Below are positions 29,234 through 38,619 of a stretch of DNA of 64,000 nucleotides, in pieces. Within the stretch, counting starts at the first letter, position 1. Each line of letters begins with the position of its first letter. The notes under the pieces were generated by a model. The model saw only the letters and a list, made by a program, of their open reading frames with translations, ran no database searches and was not told where the DNA came from. Source of the DNA: a virus; the IMG/VR virus record IMGVR_UViG_3300024999_000080, positions 1-64,000 of that record. One strand, 5' to 3'. The translations under genes were made by a program, and so were the position numbers.

Positions 29234-29357
29234 AGTTGGAAGAGAATTGGAGGGGTGGGGTTATAATTATAAAAATAAATTTTATAATTATGAATAGGAC
29301 AAAATGAAATTGTCTATAATATAATCACAAGGAAATAAAAAGGAGTGTGATTATATT

Positions 29358-29774
29358 ATGCAAAATGTAAGTGTAAGTGTAAGTGTAAGTGTAAATAAAG
29401 TTTCACAAGAGATAAAAAGAGGAGATATTTGGTTAGCAGAATTAGAAGGAAGTAAAGGTTCAGAAATGAAAATGGTACGCCCCGTTGTAATCATTCAAAA
29501 TAATTTAGGGAATAAATATAGCCCATGTTGCACTATAATTCCATTGACTAGTAAGGTTGGGAAACGATGGATGCCCACTCACACAACCCTACATAAGACG
29601 GTTTGCTTATCAACTTTGAGTATTGCTCTCGCAGAACAGGTTGCAACGATTTCAAAGGAACGATTGACAAAATTTATTGGAGTGGTCGAAAAGTCAGAAA
29701 TAGTTGCTATTGAAGATGCTATTATGATTCAGTTGGGAATCAAACCAAGAAATAATATTGCGTATGCAAATTAA
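29358..29774 (+). CDS. mazF: MazF/PemK endoribonuclease, no adjacent antitoxin
   Basis: KRGDIWLAEL, GSEMKMVRPVVIIQNN.GN..SP, PLTS, PTH, AEQV.TISKERL. Confidence 0.88.
   Translation: MQNVSVSVSVSVNKVSQEIKRGDIWLAELEGSKGSEMKMVRPVVIIQNNLGNKYSPCCTIIPLTSKVGKRWMPTHTTLHKTVCLSTLSIALAEQVATISKERLTKFIGVVEKSEIVAIEDAIMIQLGIKPRNNIAYAN
29367..29394 (+). repeat. (GTAAGT)4 in-frame microsatellite encoding VSVSVSVS
   Basis: Direct reading. Confidence 0.9.
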
Positions 29775-29820: not shown

Positions 29821-31374
29821 TTGGCAAAGGAGAATTGCCGAGTGCTGTTAACAAAGACGCTAACAATGAAATGGAGTGCAAATAATAAGGTATGGTTTGA
29901 AAGTAAGGGATATACTTTTACTAAATGGAAAGATGAATTTGAGATTAAGGTGGAAGATTTATCTGATGGTTCTGGGGCATTAGTTGATGTCCAATGTGAC
30001 GGATGTGGAGAAATATTAACTAATATGAAATGGCAATCATATATAAGAAGTTCTAAGAAAGATGGTAAATATTATTGTAAAAAATGTTCTTGTAAATTAT
30101 TTGATGGTGAAAATCAGAGAAAAACTAAGTTAAAAAGTAGCAAATCCTTTTACGATTGGTGCTATGAAAATTTACCAAGAGCAATAGCAAATTATATATT
30201 ATCAAAATGGGATTATGCTTTAAATATCAATAAGAACGGCAATATAATAAGTCCTAAAGATGTTAGTTTTAGTTCTACAGGTTTTGACGGTAAAGGATAT
30301 TGGTTTAAATGCCTTAAATATCCTGAACATGGATCTGAACAGAAACGTATTAGTAATTTTGTTAGCGGAATGGGTTTAGGTAACGTTATTACTTGCATTC
30401 AATGTAACATTATTTCTATTACCCATCCACATTTAATAAAATATCTGGTAAATAAAGAAGATGCGAATAAATATTCTTTTGGTTCAAATGAAAAAATACC
30501 CATGAATTGTGTTAATTGTGGATATGAAAAAAAATTAAGTTTTAATAAATTAGTAAGTAGAGGTTTCCCTTGTCCAAGGTGTTCAGATGGTATAAGCTAT
30601 CCTGAAAAATTTCTATTTTCATTCTTAGAACAATTAAATTTATATTTTAACTTTCAATTAACAAAAACAACTTTCAAATGGTGTGGCAAATATAAATATG
30701 ACTTTTACATAGAAATAATTAATGGAATAGTTGAGGCAGGAGGTTTGCAACACTATGACGATACTAAAGGTAGAAATTGGGGAGCATCATTAGAAGAAAT
30801 ACAAGAAAATGATTTCGACAAGGAATGGATTGCTAGAATAAATAAAATTAAGAATTACATAATTTTAGATTGTAGATATTCTGATATGAAATGGATTAAG
30901 CAATCTATAATGAAGTCTAGGTTGCTTATATTAGGATTTAAAGAGGAAGATATCGATTGGCTAAAGTGTCATGAGGCGGGTTGTAATAGTTTGGTTAAAA
31001 TTTCCTGTGATCTATGGAATAATGGAATGAAAAATACATCACAGATAGCAGATATAATAAAGGTGCATAGGGCTACTATTGTAAACTACTTAAAACAAGG
31101 AGTTAAACTTGAATGGTGTGACTATGATCCTAAAATAGCGATGACTGGTAACTATAGTAGAAGTGTTATATGTATAACTACTAGGGAGATATTTAATTCA
31201 ATTGCTGAAGCAGGAAACGTTTATAAAACAGATTGTAGTAGTATATCAAAATGTAGTAAAAATAAAAAGAAATACTCAGGATTACATTCAGAAACGGGAG
31301 ATAAATTAAAATGGATGTATTTAGTAGATTATGAGAATATGGTTAAATATCAAAATAATAATAAACCTTCATAA
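29821..31374 (+). CDS. Zn-ribbon + PD-(D/E)XK/Vsr-like endonuclease + NUMOD1-like (homing-endonuclease-type) protein
   Basis: Multiple CxxC; SYPEKF; YDFYI...IVEAGGLQHY; C-terminal VICITTREIFNSIAEA. Confidence 0.7.
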   Translation: MAKENCRVLLTKTLTMKWSANNKVWFESKGYTFTKWKDEFEIKVEDLSDGSGALVDVQCDGCGEILTNMKWQSYIRSSKKDGKYYCKKCSCKLFDGENQRKTKLKSSKSFYDWCYENLPRAIANYILSKWDYALNINKNGNIISPKDVSFSSTGFDGKGYWFKCLKYPEHGSEQKRISNFVSGMGLGNVITCIQCNIISITHPHLIKYLVNKEDANKYSFGSNEKIPMNCVNCGYEKKLSFNKLVSRGFPCPRCSDGISYPEKFLFSFLEQLNLYFNFQLTKTTFKWCGKYKYDFYIEIINGIVEAGGLQHYDDTKGRNWGASLEEIQENDFDKEWIARINKIKNYIILDCRYSDMKWIKQSIMKSRLLILGFKEEDIDWLKCHEAGCNSLVKISCDLWNNGMKNTSQIADIIKVHRATIVNYLKQGVKLEWCDYDPKIAMTGNYSRSVICITTREIFNSIAEAGNVYKTDCSSISKCSKNKKKYSGLHSETGDKLKWMYLVDYENMVKYQNNNKPS

Positions 31375-31422: not shown

Positions 31423-32043
31423 ATGGTTGAAACATTAATATTCAGTATTTTGTGCCTAAAAACAAAATTATATTTAAAGCTAGGCAAATTCCAAATACAT
31501 AAAGAATCATATCTAGTTAAACCAATACTAAAACAATGGAGTATTTATCCGGTAATACTTATGTCATTAATATATTGTATTTTTCAATATATGATTTTAA
31601 ACCATGATTATAGTTTTATACCATATCAAAAGATATTTAAAGATGCCTTGATCATGTCATACATAATATTAGGAGTCGATATTTTATTTAGGAATAAAAT
31701 ATATAAACCATTTATATTTGCTTGTTATAGTTTATTAAGTGGTTGTGGACTGAACGCTATTGTAATGCATTTTAACAATAAAAAGATGCCAATTTTCCCG
31801 ACATTTACTTATTCGACTGGCTATACACAGTATGATATGATTATAAATTCTTCTAAATATGGAGATTTTCATGTTCTTGGAGATCATACAACAAAATTGA
31901 TATTTTTAGCTGATGTATTCGATGTCTGTGGGTTTTCAATATGGTCAATCGGGGATATTTTGGTCAGGGTATTTGCTTTTATGATGGTATATTATTCAGT
32001 TAAAGAGGTTAATAAAATACATAAGAATAAAATTGTAAATTAA
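31423..32043 (+). CDS. DUF5317-family membrane protein
   Basis: Hydrophobic; LNAIVMHFNNKKMP...TKLIFLAD...SIGDI pattern. Confidence 0.75.
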   Translation: MVETLIFSILCLKTKLYLKLGKFQIHKESYLVKPILKQWSIYPVILMSLIYCIFQYMILNHDYSFIPYQKIFKDALIMSYIILGVDILFRNKIYKPFIFACYSLLSGCGLNAIVMHFNNKKMPIFPTFTYSTGYTQYDMIINSSKYGDFHVLGDHTTKLIFLADVFDVCGFSIWSIGDILVRVFAFMMVYYSVKEVNKIHKNKIVN

Positions 32044-32056
32044 TAAATAAATATAC

Positions 32057-32085
32057 TTGCATTACATTCTTGCATATGGTATACT
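32057..32085 (+). promoter_or_regulatory. sigmaA promoter for receptor-agrD
   Basis: TTGCAT-N17-TATACT with TG extension. Confidence 0.6.
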
Positions 32086-32125: not shown

Positions 32126-32941
32126 ATGCAAGGTGTAACAAATGCTTTATTGAATACTATTTTGGTAAGCATCCCAGAGGAATCATTTATTGTAATTATG
32201 ACATTGGTTTTTTTAAGAAGATTTGATATGTTGGACATCAGAATGTGGAAACACAGTTTGAAATGGATCATGGTTCCAACCTTGCCCGTAGCAATAATGA
32301 TAAACGTGTTTAGATATATAGTAATAATACCAAAACCATTAATGTCTTTAGCTTCATTTATATTAATGACAATTTTAATAATATTTATGATAATAAAAAA
32401 TAGTGTTGTTTTTGATAAAAAGTTATTATTTAAGACAATAATGTTTACAATATTAAGTTTTGTTGTGGTTGGATTAATAGAATTATTATATTATCCTATT
32501 TCACTCTCCTTGTTACATAAACAGATGTCTTATTTTAATAATAATATCCTATACAATCTTTTATTAGCAATTCCTACAAGAGTATTACAAATATGTATTG
32601 TGGCATTTATCATAATGAGGAAAAACAATGATATTGAGATAAATTTATTCAACACAATTGTGAGAAACAAGTTTTTTACAAAAAGTTTTATAATGATGAT
32701 AACTATTATGTTATTTGTAATAATTTATATGGGGAAGTTGCTAATGTTTGATAATATATTAGTGGAATTACAAGTCATTGATCAATTGTTCATAGTTTTA
32801 ATTGTTATAGTAACACCAATAATTTTAATTACTTGGTTCCTAATGTTTGTTAATTATTTATTAACAAAGGAAAAACAAATACAGCAGACTTACGAAAATC
32901 TTGTTATGCAAGATGACGTAATGCTTGATGTAGAAGATTAA
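32126..32941 (+). CDS. Multi-TM protein resembling an AgrC-type sensor domain, lacking a histidine-kinase domain
   Basis: About 7 hydrophobic segments and a short acidic tail; no H-box/N/G boxes; directly upstream of agrD. Confidence 0.55.
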   Translation: MQGVTNALLNTILVSIPEESFIVIMTLVFLRRFDMLDIRMWKHSLKWIMVPTLPVAIMINVFRYIVIIPKPLMSLASFILMTILIIFMIIKNSVVFDKKLLFKTIMFTILSFVVVGLIELLYYPISLSLLHKQMSYFNNNILYNLLLAIPTRVLQICIVAFIIMRKNNDIEINLFNTIVRNKFFTKSFIMMITIMLFVIIYMGKLLMFDNILVELQVIDQLFIVLIVIVTPIILITWFLMFVNYLLTKEKQIQQTYENLVMQDDVMLDVED

Positions 32942-32961: not shown

Positions 32962-33078
32962 ATGAAAAAATACGCTATCGTCGCTGGAATGGTTGCCCTG
33001 GCCGCTACAATGTTTACTAATGTTTTTGCTTCTTGGTTGGGTGCACATCAACCAAAGTCCCCTAATTGCATGAAATAA
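32962..33078 (+). CDS. agrD: AgrD-type cyclic lactone autoinducer precursor (38 aa, missed by the ORF track)
   Basis: Perfect RBS AAAGGAGGTGA; MKKYAIVAGMVALAATMFTNVFA-SWLGA-HQPKSPNCMK matches clostridial AgrD leader-[C/S]xxxx-HQPxxP. Confidence 0.88.
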   Translation: MKKYAIVAGMVALAATMFTNVFASWLGAHQPKSPNCMK

Positions 33079-33090
33079 TATTATCCTACA

Positions 33091-33120
33091 TATAGGGAGG
33101 GACTTCGGTTCTTCCCTATA
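33091..33120 (+). terminator. 13-bp hairpin with C(UUCG)G tetraloop after agrD
   Basis: TATAGGGAGGGAC-TTCG-GTTCTTCCCTATA. Confidence 0.75.
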
Positions 33121-33158: not shown

Positions 33159-33188
33159 TTGACATTTTGCATATCTTTATAGTAAGAT
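33159..33188 (+). promoter_or_regulatory. sigmaA promoter for HTH-MazF + agrB
   Basis: TTGACA-N18-TAAGAT. Confidence 0.55.
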
Positions 33189-33252
33189 ATTAATAAGGAA
33201 ATAATAAAAAATTATAAATATCTTATTAGAGATGAAGAGGAGATGTGTTATT

Positions 33253-34035
33253 ATGTTAAACAAATTCTTTACTAAAAACACCAATACCGAGGAAAATACC
33301 AAAAAAGATTTCAAAAAATTAGCTAACTATGTAATTCATGCCAAAGGTCATAGGACGATCAATGGATTTGCAGCAGATATGAAAACCGACTCTGAATATC
33401 TAACTCTTGTTGTTAATGCAAGAATAAACTCTTATCCAGATATAAAATTTCTTAAAACCATCGCTGACAATTCTGATGGTAGAGTATCTTTAAAGGATTT
33501 AACATTGGCGTGTGGGTATTCAAATTACACAAATAATGATATGGAACAGATAAAAAATATTGAAGTCAGAAGAGGAACTTTTTGCTATGTTAGTTTGGGT
33601 GATGTCATAGATTCAGAGTATGGGGGAAATCGATTATGTTTAGTTATACAAAATGATGTAGGGAATCACTTCTCAAGCACTTCAATTATTTTACCTCTCA
33701 CTAGTAGAAAACGTAGTAAGCTTCCCACCCACGTTGAAGTTGGGCCTAAAAATTGCGGATTGCCCCAAGAATCAATTATTAGTTGTGAGCAAATTCGTTG
33801 TGTATCAAAAAGGAGACTTAGCCAAAACGGGATAGTTCAGAAGGTTTCAGAATGCCCTTCAGAAATTATGTTATTGGTTGAGGTTGCCATGCTGAAGGCA
33901 CAAGGGGTTATTCATCTTAAAATGAATGAACAAGAAGCAGTTCAATATCTAATGAATATGAACAAGCAAAAAACATATCAGTATCAAAATAATTATAATC
34001 GTAGTGCAAGTCAGCAGGTTGCCTTTGCACGATAA
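33253..34035 (+). CDS. Xre-HTH-MazF/PemK fusion protein
   Basis: N-terminal RTINGFAADM...YPDIKFLKTIA...LTLACGY (HTH-like); C-terminal RRG..., SEYGGNRLCLVIQNDVGN, PLTS, KLPTHV, CEQIRCVSKRRL. Confidence 0.85.
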   Translation: MLNKFFTKNTNTEENTKKDFKKLANYVIHAKGHRTINGFAADMKTDSEYLTLVVNARINSYPDIKFLKTIADNSDGRVSLKDLTLACGYSNYTNNDMEQIKNIEVRRGTFCYVSLGDVIDSEYGGNRLCLVIQNDVGNHFSSTSIILPLTSRKRSKLPTHVEVGPKNCGLPQESIISCEQIRCVSKRRLSQNGIVQKVSECPSEIMLLVEVAMLKAQGVIHLKMNEQEAVQYLMNMNKQKTYQYQNNYNRSASQQVAFAR

Positions 34036-34059: not shown

Positions 34060-34683
34060 ATGAGTTTTATTGAAAATGTTTCAAATTATTCTGCTAGGTG
34101 GTTGGCATCAAAAGTACCTAATGATAAATATCCTACAGTAGAAGATCAAATTGAGGTTTTTACCTATGGTTTTATGGTTATATGGGGATTTATATTTAAG
34201 ATCATATTGATGGTATCATTAGCATATATCTTTAATATTATAATCCCTATTATAATATTAACATTGACTTTCAGTAGTTTAAGAATTATCGCAGGAGGAT
34301 ACCATTTAAAGACCTATAATCGCTGTATGATTATTAGTGCTTTGCAATTCATTGTATCAGCATTAATAATCAAACACACATATCAATATTGGCCTATCCA
34401 AAACATCTATTCTCTGCTATTCTTTTGTGTATTAACGACACTATATATAATCTTCAGATATATTCCAAGAGACACACCCAACAAACCCATTATAGACCCT
34501 TTACAGATTAAAAAGTTTAAACGATGGTCATTATACTACCTTATCGCATGGACAGTTGTAATGACCATCTTCCTACTGTTTAATGTACATATAATTGTAA
34601 TTGCAAGTTGTTTTGGGTTATTGTTGGAGCTTTTTAGTGTGGGTAGAATAGGGCAATCGATATACTCTAAGCTAGATTCATAA
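34060..34683 (+). CDS. agrB: Accessory gene regulator B (AIP-processing membrane peptidase)
   Basis: EVFTYG, LRIIAGGYHLKTYNRC (catalytic H/C), PRDTPNKPI. Confidence 0.92.
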   Translation: MSFIENVSNYSARWLASKVPNDKYPTVEDQIEVFTYGFMVIWGFIFKIILMVSLAYIFNIIIPIIILTLTFSSLRIIAGGYHLKTYNRCMIISALQFIVSALIIKHTYQYWPIQNIYSLLFFCVLTTLYIIFRYIPRDTPNKPIIDPLQIKKFKRWSLYYLIAWTVVMTIFLLFNVHIIVIASCFGLLLELFSVGRIGQSIYSKLDS

Positions 34684-34783: not shown

Positions 34784-35512
34784 TTGGAAACATATAAAGA
34801 TTTAACTGGATTAGTATTTAATAATTGGACTGTTCTAGAATTATCGAACAGAACAAATAAGAAAGATGATAGATATTGGAAATGCCGTTGTAATTGCGAA
34901 TATAAAACAATTAAACATGTAGCAGAAAGGGCATTGTCTTTTGGCACATCAAGAAGTTGTGGTTGTTTACTAGGAAAAATACCATCTAAAAAAATTGCAA
35001 AGGTTAAACCTGATAAAATATTAAAACCTCCAAAAGACAAAATAGTTAAACCTAAAATCGTAAAACCTTTAAAAATTCTAAAGAAAAGAATTTATAAAGT
35101 AAAAATATCTGATAGTAAAGAAATTAAAATATCATACAACAAAAGAATAATGAGCATTTATAGCGGAATGAAACAAAGATGCTATAACCCTAAAGCTAAA
35201 GGTTTTAAATATTATGGGGGCAAAGGAGTTGTTATTTGTGATGAGTGGTTAAATGATAGAAAGTTATTTTATAATTGGGCAATAAACAATGGATATTCTG
35301 ATGAATTAACTATTGACAGAATAGAAAATGATGGGAATTATGAACCAGACAATTGCAGGTGGACTACTTGGGAAGAGCAAGCCAATAATAAATCTAATAC
35401 TGTATATTATAGATATGAAGGAGAAATTAAATCTTCATTGGATTGGTGCAAAGAAACTTGGTTAACTTTTGAAACTTTAAAGAACATATTTGATATACAT
35501 ATCCTGCATTAA
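34784..35512 (+). CDS. HNH homing endonuclease
   Basis: WKCRCNC, SCGC, MKQRCYNP, YGGKG, LTIDRIENDGNYEPDNCRW. Confidence 0.88.
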   Translation: METYKDLTGLVFNNWTVLELSNRTNKKDDRYWKCRCNCEYKTIKHVAERALSFGTSRSCGCLLGKIPSKKIAKVKPDKILKPPKDKIVKPKIVKPLKILKKRIYKVKISDSKEIKISYNKRIMSIYSGMKQRCYNPKAKGFKYYGGKGVVICDEWLNDRKLFYNWAINNGYSDELTIDRIENDGNYEPDNCRWTTWEEQANNKSNTVYYRYEGEIKSSLDWCKETWLTFETLKNIFDIHILH

Positions 35513-36118: not shown

Positions 36119-36147
36119 TTGACATTAGAGTAATAATTGTATATAAT
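36119..36147 (+). promoter_or_regulatory. Perfect sigmaA promoter for the DGQHR/recombinase-like operon
   Basis: TTGACA-N17-TATAAT. Confidence 0.85.
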
Positions 36148-36185: not shown

Positions 36186-37544
36186 ATGCTTAAAGAAAAA
36201 TCAGTTGAATTGATCCAAGAATTAAATCCATTAATCGTTAAATATTCTAGCAATGACAAAGTAAGGAAAATAATTTTAGATGAGTTCTCTAAGAGGAATA
36301 TGAGTGGTCGTTTAGCACTTTCTATCCTTAATGAGAAAAGGGCATTATCAACATTAGACATTGATGAAGGTAAAGATTTAGTATTATTATTTGTTTTTAC
36401 AAATGCAATGTATGATGCATTAAATTTTAAAACAGATGATGATTCTCCAATTTTAGGAGATATCGATGAAGTATTAAGTATTGTTCCAAGCAATTTCTTT
36501 AATGAAATAGAAATGCAGAATATGGAAAATTATAAAGAGGAGAAAAGAGTAGAGACGAAAAAGCAATATGTGTTTCATAATATGCTTCGTGCGGCTGATG
36601 GGCATTATAAAGGTTTAGATCATGCTAAACATCTTGCAGAAATATATGCAGAAAATGAAATTATTTATAATTTTAAGAATCAACGTGATCCGCATATTGA
36701 TATTTATGGAGAAAAGAGAATTCAACTTGATAAAAACAAAGTAGAACGAATAATGAATAGACTGCTTGAAGGAATTCAATTTTCAGATGATATCAAATTA
36801 AATATACTTCATGATGGTGAAGATGAATTATATTTTAATGAAAAAACTGGAGATTTAACCTATATTTCTGGAAGTATTAATATATTTGATGGTTATCATA
36901 GACTCATAGCTAATTCTTTAGCTATCGCAAAAAATGCAGAATTAGAGTTTAACTGGGGGTTAGTAATTACTAATTTCAGTGAGAATAAAACATTAGAATT
37001 TATGACCCAAGTTAATGAGCAAAAACCCATGAAAAAAGAGCATATAAAGAACCTAGATTCTTCAAGATTGGGAAATGTTGTAGTAGATGCAATTAGAGAC
37101 ATTGGTACTAGTGAATTTGGTCAGAATATTAAAGAATCAGATGCAGAATTGAAGTTTTCTGGTATGACAAAAAAGTCTACTTTAGCTATTAGTATAGAAG
37201 AATGTTATAAGGAAAAACTAACCAATAGACTTCAAGCAAAGCCCATAGCAAAGCATATTGCTAACGTTATGGACTATATCATTGGATTGAATGTTGAAGA
37301 GTTTATAGAGCGTCCTGACGCTTCTCAGACATATATCAACCACAAGAATATGTTCTCTGGATATGTTGCTTTATCAGAAAGATTATATGATGTAAAGAAT
37401 TGGGAAGACTTATTAGAAGAAATTCTTAATCAAATTGATTTCAGTGTTAAAAATCCTTTCTGGAAAGATATTGGAATATCAGATTCCGATATGAAAAAAT
37501 CTACCAGAAATAACCTATATAAATTCTTTCAGAAATTAGTTTGA
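36186..37544 (+). CDS. DGQHR/DndB (ParB-Srx-like) domain protein, SPbeta YopQ-like
   Basis: NQRD, INIFDGYHRL, QVNEQKPM; position upstream of a recombinase-fold gene. Confidence 0.6.
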   Translation: MLKEKSVELIQELNPLIVKYSSNDKVRKIILDEFSKRNMSGRLALSILNEKRALSTLDIDEGKDLVLLFVFTNAMYDALNFKTDDDSPILGDIDEVLSIVPSNFFNEIEMQNMENYKEEKRVETKKQYVFHNMLRAADGHYKGLDHAKHLAEIYAENEIIYNFKNQRDPHIDIYGEKRIQLDKNKVERIMNRLLEGIQFSDDIKLNILHDGEDELYFNEKTGDLTYISGSINIFDGYHRLIANSLAIAKNAELEFNWGLVITNFSENKTLEFMTQVNEQKPMKKEHIKNLDSSRLGNVVVDAIRDIGTSEFGQNIKESDAELKFSGMTKKSTLAISIEECYKEKLTNRLQAKPIAKHIANVMDYIIGLNVEEFIERPDASQTYINHKNMFSGYVALSERLYDVKNWEDLLEEILNQIDFSVKNPFWKDIGISDSDMKKSTRNNLYKFFQKLV

Positions 37545-37572
37545 TTAATATATTTAATAAGGGGTGTTTAAT

Positions 37573-38619
37573 ATGTCCATCAATGAAGTTAACGAAGAAT
37601 TGCAAGATGAAGAGGTAGTATTTGAGGTTGATTCAGAAGTTAAAAAGGAGTTTCTAGAAAATCAATTAAAATCTACTAGAAGTTTCTACACTTATGTCCT
37701 CAAAAGAGCAGATGAATTTGAAACACAGGTTGGCAAGAAAATTTATGACTTCAATATTGAAGATCGTGATGAAATGCTAACTGTTCAATTCAAGAATAAG
37801 AACAAATGGACGTTTCAATCTGCTTTATCTCCTTTAAAAACTTATGTTGACTTCTGTATATCTAAAAGTTTAGTTAGACATAATGAGAACAGATTTATGA
37901 CCATTCTTCCTGCTGATTATAAGGATTATATTAATGACCAAGCACAATGTAATTCTTATATTCCTTTATCTAAATCTAGAGAACTTCAAAAAAGGTTGAA
38001 AAATGATCAAGATAAATTGATTATAGAGTTATCTAGTTTGTCTGTCAGAGGAAGAACTGAAAAGGGGAATACTCTTGAAGAACTCGTAAATTTAAAGGTT
38101 AAAGATATTAAATGGAAGACTAAAGAATTATATCTTACTAAAAACAATGGTGAACAAAGATATATTGAAACTGATGATTACACATTAGGTTTACTCAAAC
38201 GAGTTATAAATCAAACTTTCTATGTCTCTAATAATGGGTTAAAATCTAAGAAAAATGAGGATGGTATTTATGAAGAGACTAATAGAGGTAGGGCTATAAG
38301 TCCGACTGAATATGTATTTAGAGTTCCCGGAAAGAACAGATTAGGTAAAGTAGATTATCAATTTTTCACTAGCAGAATTCAAAGGATGCAAGGTTGGTTA
38401 GAAGCTCCTTATTTGACTAGTTCGAATTTATACTTCTCAGCGATTTTAGACTATGCAAAAGAGAAGATGGATGAAAAAAAGGCAAAAGGAGAAAAATGTG
38501 AATTAACCAGAGAAGACTATATTCAAATTAATGAGCGATTTGAGTTTGGTGAAAATGGAGAAAAATATGTATTCAAAACCAGAGATTTAGTTAAAATGTA
38601 TTTTGGTAATGGAGAGTAA
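37573..38619 (+). CDS. Tyrosine-recombinase-fold protein with degenerate catalytic box II; YopR/MrpR-like master repressor candidate
   Basis: SAM-like N-terminus (LKTYVDFC); RG....LEELVNLKVKDI box I; TSSNLYFS replaces HxLRH. Confidence 0.65.
   Translation: MSINEVNEELQDEEVVFEVDSEVKKEFLENQLKSTRSFYTYVLKRADEFETQVGKKIYDFNIEDRDEMLTVQFKNKNKWTFQSALSPLKTYVDFCISKSLVRHNENRFMTILPADYKDYINDQAQCNSYIPLSKSRELQKRLKNDQDKLIIELSSLSVRGRTEKGNTLEELVNLKVKDIKWKTKELYLTKNNGEQRYIETDDYTLGLLKRVINQTFYVSNNGLKSKKNEDGIYEETNRGRAISPTEYVFRVPGKNRLGKVDYQFFTSRIQRMQGWLEAPYLTSSNLYFSAILDYAKEKMDEKKAKGEKCELTREDYIQINERFEFGENGEKYVFKTRDLVKMYFGNGE

Follow-up and report, generated by a model that had tools for sequence, protein, structure and literature searches.

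The window analyzed here, a 64-kb stretch forming the first part of the 76.9-kb IMG/VR virus record IMGVR_UViG_3300024999_000080 (CheckV completeness, 44%), encodes at positions 33253 to 34035 a three-part protein composed of a predicted Xre-type helix-turn-helix (HTH) domain, a MazF/PemK endoribonuclease (RNase) domain joined to it by a conserved linker, and a conserved C-terminal extension. The gene, referred to below as HTH-mazF, lies between agrD and agrB, directly upstream of yopQ- and yopR-like genes, and no mazE-type gene was detected in the record. We propose, with a probability of roughly 45%, that HTH-MazF is a phage-borne MazF RNase tethered to DNA and forms the cytoplasmic output of a peptide circuit without a kinase, in parallel with the arbitrium-MazF axis of phage phi3T.

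Architecture and conservation of HTH-MazF

The MazF part of the protein was recognized by both sequence and structure comparison. The PF02452 (PemK_toxin) profile matched with an E value of 4.7e-21 (score, 75.5 bits, with the cut-off at 23.1; 77.2 bits in the genome-level search), and the HTH-MazF family profile retrieved Bacillus subtilis EndoA (4mdx/1ne8) with an E value of 1.8e-27. PHROGs placed the MazF core among its "moron/host takeover" families. An AF2 model of the full protein reached a predicted local distance difference test (pLDDT) score of 83, with values below 50 for residues 243 to 260. Foldseek aligned this model to 1ne8, 4hke, and 4mdx at E values of about 1e-11, with template modeling (TM) scores of 0.88 to 0.91 and a root mean square deviation (rmsd) of 1.7 to 1.9 Å; placed on 1ne8/4mdx, it gave a TM score of 0.90 and an rmsd of 1.7 to 1.8 Å.

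The N-terminal 104 residues, in turn, were unmatched by Pfam or PDB sequence profiles. None of 14 N-terminal domains matched the HTH_3 clan of Pfam (PF01381) at E values up to 10, and one stray match to HTH_DeoR was obtained (E, 0.027). The domain did match phrog_18248, annotated as "transcriptional regulator," with an E value of 2e-4, and its weak language-model neighbors at 0.85 agreed with an HTH. Folded alone, it formed a five-helix bundle with a core pLDDT above 90. The best structural matches of this model by VIA were 2ofy (Z, 10.2), C.AhdI (8.9), the N-terminal domain of CapH (8.5), SinR (8.4), and ImmR (8.4), and the top 50 matches (Z, 10.2 to 6.2) were nearly all Xre, Cro, C-protein, SinR, ImmR, or CapH structures. 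Foldseek returned the same families at E values of 0.06 to 0.3. The original prediction, which was made from the nucleotide sequence, had described a PemK domain with the catalytic Arg (GGNR) and Thr (PLTS) of EndoA fused to an HTH. Both parts of that description were borne out, with the N-terminal domain confirmed as an Xre-type HTH at the level of its predicted fold only.

The Arg of the GGNR motif is R127, equivalent to EndoA R25, and the Thr of the PLTS motif is T150, equivalent to EndoA T48; R25 and T48 form the catalytic pair of EndoA (PMC7354611, PMC8634880). R127 was kept in all 47 close relatives, and position 150 was Thr in 45 of them and Ser in the remaining 2. Among the wider fused relatives, at 26 to 40% identity, the equivalent of R127 was present in 22 of 22, and that of T150 was Thr in 16 and Ser in 6. 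The family also retains the equivalents of EndoA E20, N32, N36, S73, E78, and R87, whose roles have been described (PMC7354611, PMC8634880). This pattern favors a retained RNase, as does the 39 to 44% identity of the MazF core to EndoA and to the MazF of a candidate host. Our reading is that the RNase chemistry is probably under selection and that the substrate-reading loop is unlike that of EndoA.

A search of 5.8 billion proteins yielded 52 clusters of homologues (248 to 279 amino acids [aa]) that were 51 to 88% identical to HTH-MazF over its full length. An exhaustive profile-free search added fused relatives of 240 to 304 aa, with 26 to 42% identity across residues 18 to 240. The family is essentially phage restricted, nearly all of its members being encoded on phage contigs, the largest of which measured 230 kb. 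We did not find it described in the searchable literature, which also yielded no paper dealing with HTH-MazF fusions, DUF5317, or phage cassettes that combine agr genes with MazF. A stand-alone N-terminal domain (<143 aa) was not found; two candidates for an unfused ancestor, P0053 and P0054, proved to be fragments at contig ends. Other matches of the exhaustive search (P0062, P0065, P0064, and P0066) included proteins in which MazF occurs twice and 471-aa proteins with four matched stretches; these are possible single-chain MazF dimers or arrays.

The mean pairwise identity within the family was 66% for the HTH, 71% for the linker (residues 93 to 105), 59% for the MazF domain, and 47 to 49% for the C-terminal extension. 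The linker is the best-conserved segment of the protein, with C87, G88, Y89, and S90 invariant. At the end of the tail, an aromatic-Ala motif recurs (QVAFA, VASFA, or PAYA), also in the wider fused family. The start codon was assigned to position 33253, and not to the upstream ATG at 33232, because an AGGAG sequence is located 10 nucleotides (nt) 5' of the former and all homologues begin with MFNK or MLNK.

An agr-type cassette upstream of yopQ- and yopR-like genes

When the proteins of the window were compared by tblastn with 16 related loci, a common gene order was observed: solo MazF, a variable homing endonuclease, a DUF5317 protein, a polytopic membrane protein, AgrD, HTH-MazF, and AgrB, followed by a membrane-protein paralogue in several loci, p118, a DndB-like protein, and a recombinase-like protein. 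The DUF5317 gene was the first conserved gene 3' of the solo MazF gene. The order membrane protein-agrD-HTH-mazF-agrB was kept in at least 14 viral contigs, and the cassette order was retained in loci L020 and L022 despite an HTH-MazF identity of only 30 to 33%. Homing and HNH endonuclease genes around and inside the cassette (29821 to 31374 and 34784 to 35512 in the window) were present or absent depending on the locus; the gene order has thus been kept despite local turnover. Since it persists down to 30 to 33% identity while homing endonucleases come and go, we infer that the cassette genes are functionally linked. HTH-mazF and agrB probably constitute an operon, because the unit has its own conserved promoter and inverted repeat and agrB follows so closely on the HTH-mazF stop codon (Table 1).

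Table 1. Features of the HTH-mazF locus (window coordinates)
Feature	Position	Strand	Details
Solo MazF	29358..29774	+	138 aa; PF02452 E 6e-26; canonical GSE..VRP loop, PLTS
DUF5317 membrane protein	31423..32043	+	PF17248 E 5.5e-19; syntenic in 12 loci
Polytopic membrane protein	32126..32941	+	271 aa from conserved MQ start; KEKQIQQTYENL juxtamembrane segment, acidic tail
agrD	32962..33078	+	38 aa; predicted ring SWLGA before HQPKSP; TIGR04223 19.9 bits vs cut-off 19
TACAT then conserved stem-loop	33087..33120	+	3' end of agrD; C(UUCG)G tetraloop in most loci
Sigma-A-like promoter of HTH-mazF-agrB unit	33159..33188	+	TTGACA, 18-nt spacer, TAAGAT; consensus scan
Imperfect inverted repeat	33180..33228	.	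17-nt arms, 15-nt spacer, 88% complementary; overlaps -10 and leader
HTH-MazF open reading frame	33253..34035	+	260 aa plus stop; AGGAG ribosome-binding site; 47 full-length homologues, 51-88% identity
Xre-type five-helix HTH domain (predicted fold)	33304..33516	+	residues ~18-88; AF2 helices 12-31, 36-43, 47-54, 64-72, 80-87
Linker	33517..33564	+	residues ~89-104; CGYS..NND.EQIKNI motif, residues 87-103
MazF/PemK endoribonuclease domain	33565..33906	+	residues ~105-218, with R127, T150; PF02452
C-terminal extension	33907..34032	+	helix 226-236, then disordered tail; conserved N..Y..NNY, QVAFA-type end
agrB	34060..34683	+	207 aa; PF04647 E 3.4e-35; 25 nt after HTH-mazF stop
Promoter of yopQ-like/yopR-like pair	36119..36147		perfect TTGACA-17-TATAAT
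YopQ (SroE)-like DndB/DGQHR-type protein	36186..37544	+	452 aa; phrog_5732 E 3e-60
YopR (SroF)-like tyrosine-recombinase-type protein	37564..38619	+	integrase-like genes of large Bacillus phages matched by tblastn

Judging from their sequences, the agr signal genes look functional. AgrD scores above the TIGR04223 cut-off, and the AgrB translation shows a GGYH...C version of the GGxH...C motif. The putative AgrD ring has the form [S/C]xxxx before [HYN]QP[KE]xP. Its first residue is Ser in 13 of 14 loci and Cys in the remaining one, L014, and its other four residues are hypervariable (WLGA, WLFS, MFFS, WFFA, YFIS, RFWF, and others). Such variation predicts lactone autoinducers that fall into separate specificity groups.

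The polytopic membrane protein is a candidate peptide receptor and is mosaic in its conservation. Compared with its counterpart in L004, its transmembrane body is 41% identical, whereas the cytoplasmic KEKQIQQ(T/S)YENL segment and acidic tail are almost identical (alignment A3), as would be expected for a variable sensor with a conserved output. Pfam and NCBIfam searches with this protein gave no match. The possibility that it is a truncated AgrC was considered and rejected, as it had no domain match and there was no longer, kinase-bearing relative among 1,318 candidates; its language-model neighbor, a "sensory transduction protein kinase," scored only 0.89 and is a lead only. A second paralogue of the membrane protein was encoded 3' of agrB in L003, L004, L007, L009, and L013, at a place occupied in the window by an HNH endonuclease. 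A complex prediction for the membrane protein (A3) and HTH-MazF (A1) scored 0.00, which says nothing either way.

The second MazF of the cassette was present in 11 of the 13 loci whose upstream region is covered. It was 35 to 40% identical between phages whose HTH-MazF proteins were 54 to 80% identical, which suggests that it is fast evolving or exchanged. The divergence of the two proteins did not covary (identity in L013, 69% for the solo MazF and 53% for HTH-MazF; in L003, 38% and 80%). Because it evolves independently of the fusion, the solo MazF is unlikely to be the cognate partner of HTH-MazF. In the window, it begins with (SV)4, encoded by four copies of the hexamer GTGTCA.

Neither PF04014 (AbrB-type MazE) nor PF01402 (RHH_1) was matched in the 76.9-kb record, which is about 44% complete, or in two complete relatives, and neither MazF gene was preceded by a conserved small open reading frame. 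The locus therefore lacks the adjacent cognate antitoxin gene of a canonical type II MazEF module. A domain of the AbrB/MazE type was seen in the 71%-complete relative G002 (L084, G002:C1:103663-103791; 24.9 bits; 191-aa frame), remote from the cassette. PF14501 (HATPase_c_5, the AgrC-type kinase) had no match in the record or in any of five relatives, of which two were complete, and the same applies to PF04397 (LytTR) above the family cut-off; one sub-threshold LytTR match occurred in G002 (16.3 bits; E, 0.001).

The canonical gene order of agr loci is agrBDCA. The original prediction had located the fusion inside an agr locus without mazE, and this agrees with the AgrD (TIGR04223) and AgrB (PF04647) genes on its two sides and with the absence of both antitoxin profiles. 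It had also stated that the fusion sits where a response regulator normally would. That wording was loose, since the order is not agrBDCA, although neither an AgrC-type kinase domain nor a LytTR gene was found in the record or in the two complete relatives. Among the three functions it had offered, an active RNase is favored by residue conservation, while a regulator that binds host MazE and a dominant-negative partner of host MazF are minority readings.

Several noncoding elements of the cassette are conserved as well. The -35 TTGACA and the -10 element of the promoter at 33159 were conserved across 12 loci, and a conserved sigma-A-like promoter lies near 32058, before the unit of membrane protein and agrD. 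In the inverted repeat at 33180 to 33228, an 8-bp core was conserved, 80% of cells were paired, and four pairs had changed on both sides; the repeat may serve as an operator or form an RNA helix. Downstream of agrD, the stem-loop at 33091 to 33120 comprised 13 pairs (97% paired, 8 of 13 with compensatory changes) and had no U tract. Between the agrD stop codon and this hairpin, TACAT occurred in 13 of 15 loci. These represent about five lineages, some of which have unrelated hairpin sequences. This UACAU, an EndoA-type site, is a candidate target and the only UACAU site that looks selected. The solo mazF gene, too, has an inverted repeat (29309 to 29366) across its -10 element and start codon, with a 16-nt spacer between 21-nt arms that are 86% complementary; the layout is like that of the HTH-mazF promoter repeat, and the two differ in sequence.

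The genes 3' of the cassette resemble yopQ and yopR of SPbeta. By tblastn, the protein encoded at 36186 matched yopQ of SPBc2 (E, 1e-19), Geobacillus virus E3 (E, 4e-23), and the phi3T counterpart, and pairwise BLASTP of the protein encoded at 37564 against SPBc2 YopR gave an E value of 4e-7. In SPbeta and phi3T, aimR-aimP-aimX occupy the slot upstream of yopM-R. Peptide-signal genes are thus located directly upstream of yopQ/yopR-type genes in the window too, in the order and on the strand seen in SPBc2 and phi3T. AimX of phi3T compared with the HTH-MazF family profile gave a probability of 0.5%, and no AimR-family search was made. As a possible counterpart of phi3T_93, p118 was rejected, as it showed no similarity.

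The window has a G+C content of 29%, carries essentially all of its genes on the + strand, and has no tRNAs; its PHROG matches include a NAD-dependent ligase, a helicase, and HNH and homing endonucleases. Related contigs measured 121 to 230 kb, and two were complete, G001 (230 kb) and G003 (166.6 kb, with terminal repeats). The sole match in a collection of bacterial genomes was a contig of 13.9 kb assigned to a Clostridium sp. metagenome-assembled genome (MAG). On account of these contig sizes and the MAG match, the source is taken to be a large phage with a Clostridium-like host. The window was contained in three DNA runs from groundwater metagenomes of one study, with no RNA run among them. 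The DNA of the cassette had no match in the phage collection searched, and the full-length fusion was present in no phage record.

Proposed role of HTH-MazF and alternative explanations

In the proposed mechanism, HTH-MazF would be a sequence-specific endoribonuclease that dimerizes via its MazF fold and occupies the inverted repeat at the HTH-mazF promoter, by which it would set its own level and that of cotranscribed AgrB. Its RNase would constitute the cytoplasmic output of an Agr-type cyclic-peptide cassette that has no kinase and consists of AgrB, AgrD, and the covarying polytopic membrane protein. A change in the peptide signal would cause HTH-MazF to cut selected transcripts, and the choice between lysis and lysogeny would be biased as a result. 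In phi3T, arbitrium acts by controlling host MazF, which promotes lysogeny (Zamora-Caballero et al., PMC10769878); the cassette would represent a hard-wired version of this axis. We also considered a more specific, mechanistically new form of this mechanism, a second kind of phage-to-phage communication, which we regard as rather unlikely. Here, a cyclic lactone peptide made by AgrB would be sensed by the kinase-less membrane protein, whose conserved, acidic tail in the cytoplasm would hold or release HTH-MazF as a membrane-tethered, MazE-like partner. The freed RNase would cut, among other transcripts, the 3' end of agrD at the conserved UACAU, tipping an SPbeta-type repressor circuit toward lysogeny or lysis.

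A number of observations weigh against the proposed mechanism. The HTH is seen by its predicted fold alone. The β1-β2 loop of the MazF domain is noncanonical: the equivalent of EndoA G18 is an invariant Asp (47 of 47), and that of P26 is variable (M, L, P, or V). In EndoA, G18 and P26 of this loop contact the UACAU bases (PMC8634880). The activity or specificity of HTH-MazF may therefore differ from that of EndoA, and because of this difference in the substrate-reading loop, UACAU specificity should not be assumed. The phage does not avoid TACAT, which was slightly overrepresented on the + strand of the window, with 118 copies compared with 95 expected under a Markov model. The UACAU counts of individual genes, including the zero counts of the yopQ- and yopR-like genes, did not differ significantly from those of synonymous shuffles, so neither avoidance nor loading was evident in any cassette or yopQ/yopR-like gene. 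UACAU may not be the site of HTH-MazF. The inverted repeat at the promoter was common to loci with differing recognition helices and tolerated G-T positions, for which reasons it is as compatible with an RNA helix as with an operator. Furthermore, the membrane protein had no detectable kinship to AgrC, and L015 contained agrD and HTH-mazF without agrB immediately downstream. It should be noted that synteny alone is no proof that the peptide controls HTH-MazF.

The same features can be read as those of a self-contained, fused toxin-antitoxin, with the Xre domain and linker as antitoxin and autorepressor in cis and MazF freed by proteolysis or another trigger. Such a protein would serve in prophage maintenance, superinfection exclusion, or inter-phage competition, and its position in the agr locus would reflect coinheritance in an accessory island and not signaling. 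The DNA-binding domain, conserved linker, and toxin are arranged like a type II antitoxin followed by its toxin, the best-conserved segment is the linker, which is acidic and aromatic in wider relatives, and a separate antitoxin was found neither in the record nor in the two complete relatives. The disordered C terminus with its conserved aromatic-Ala end could be a degron (the ssrA tag of the candidate host is ANDNLALAA), a nearby, fast-evolving solo MazF is as expected of conflict genes, and the placement of the MazF core by PHROGs also agrees with this explanation. However, the position between agrD and agrB was kept down to 30% identity while mobile neighbors turned over, no unfused ancestor pair in the form of a stand-alone N-terminal domain was found, and the likeness of the tail to the ssrA tag is weak, the tail in the window ending with an extra Arg (..QQVAFA(R)). 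Profile comparison showed the N-terminal part and linker to be unlike the MazE of the candidate host (probability, 0.4%), so that a MazE mimic suspected by eye ("GY..ME..I.N.I") was unsupported; HTH-MazF was also unlike AimX. On balance, we consider this explanation somewhat improbable.

Two further explanations were considered. HTH-MazF might be a transcription factor, namely, an Xre repressor acting on the agr and sro promoters, with an RNase-dead MazF fold used only for dimerization or ligand binding. This would agree with an HTH and linker that are better conserved than the MazF core, with a loop that departs from canonical MazF (G18 replaced by Asp; P15 and P26 lost), and with an inverted repeat overlapping the promoter. 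It fits poorly with the invariant catalytic Arg and with a Thr/Ser kept down to 26% identity together with the equivalents of E20, N36, S73, E78, and R87, since a mere scaffold would be expected to lose catalytic residues, and we judge it to be distinctly unlikely. A decoy for host MazEF, which titrates host MazE to free host MazF or forms inactive heterodimers with host MazF, seems very unlikely. It has a precedent in phi3T, which encodes proteins that bind host MazE or MazF and whose YosL, AimX, and phi3T_93 manipulate the host system (PMC10769878). In addition, over 81 residues, the MazF core shares 44% identity with the chromosomal MazF of the Clostridium MAG that carries the related phage contig, and the same MAG has a canonical alr-mazE-mazF locus. 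Nevertheless, a decoy would have no need of conserved catalytic residues, the phage's own second, canonical MazF makes reliance on the host enzyme less necessary, and the host assignment depends on a single binned contig of 13.9 kb.

Relation to known MazF and peptide-signaling systems

If the proposed output of the peptide circuit is correct, large Clostridia phages carry their own toxin-type RNase downstream of a peptide signal, with neither kinase nor response regulator, and an Agr-type peptide would have a way to act without a phosphorelay. HTH-MazF may then link virus-to-virus signaling to the choice between killing the host and dormancy, in a compact system of five or six genes.

The closest structural relatives are the MazF proteins of B. 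subtilis (EndoA, also NdoA or YdcE), Bacillus anthracis (MoxT), and Staphylococcus aureus (PDB entries 1NE8, 4MDX, 4HKE, and 4MZM), which have the same fold and 37 to 40% identity in the core. Compared with these, HTH-MazF carries a predicted Xre-type domain and a conserved linker in front of the MazF core and is extended by about 45 residues at its C terminus; it is phage borne, is encoded within an agr cassette without an adjacent MazE, and differs in its loop (G18 to Asp; P26 variable). The Xre-type antitoxins of type II systems (HigA, HipB, and MqsA) resemble it in having a DNA-binding domain followed by a conserved segment, and the N-terminal domain model aligned to HigA and HipB at Z scores of 6.4 to 7.4. 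No sequence-level kinship with them was found, and these antitoxins are encoded apart from their toxins, their partners being RelE/HigB or HipA and not MazF.

The solitary MazF-mx of Myxococcus xanthus is likewise a MazF without MazE. A DNA-binding regulator, the transcription factor MrpC, controls it, and it serves a developmental decision (PMC2701414). The M. xanthus regulator is a separate protein encoded elsewhere, whereas here the predicted DNA-binding domain is covalently fused to MazF and the context is viral. If the proposed mechanism holds, HTH-MazF would be a natural example of a MazF with a regulator domain fused in cis.

Among phage signaling systems, agr3 of the Clostridium difficile phage phiCDHM1 (agrD-agrB-agrC; PMC3901668) similarly places AgrB and AgrD on a Clostridia phage without AgrA. 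However, phiCDHM1 has no MazF and encodes an AgrC with an HATPase domain, whereas the present cassette has no kinase domain, two MazF proteins, and a membrane protein that belongs to no known family. The arbitrium system of phi3T and SPbeta (AimR-AimP-AimX, YosL, and phi3T_93) shares with the cassette a peptide-signal module upstream of yopQ/yopR-type genes. In phi3T, MazF is the lever on lysis versus lysogeny (PMC10769878), while the neighboring genes suggest that the cassette may be linked to lysogeny. The arbitrium signal is a linear peptide imported by Opp and acts through host MazF, whereas the signal here would be a cyclic peptide processed by AgrB and the MazF is phage encoded and fused to an HTH. 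The finding that arbitrium works through MazF would in this way extend to a second, unrelated signal chemistry.

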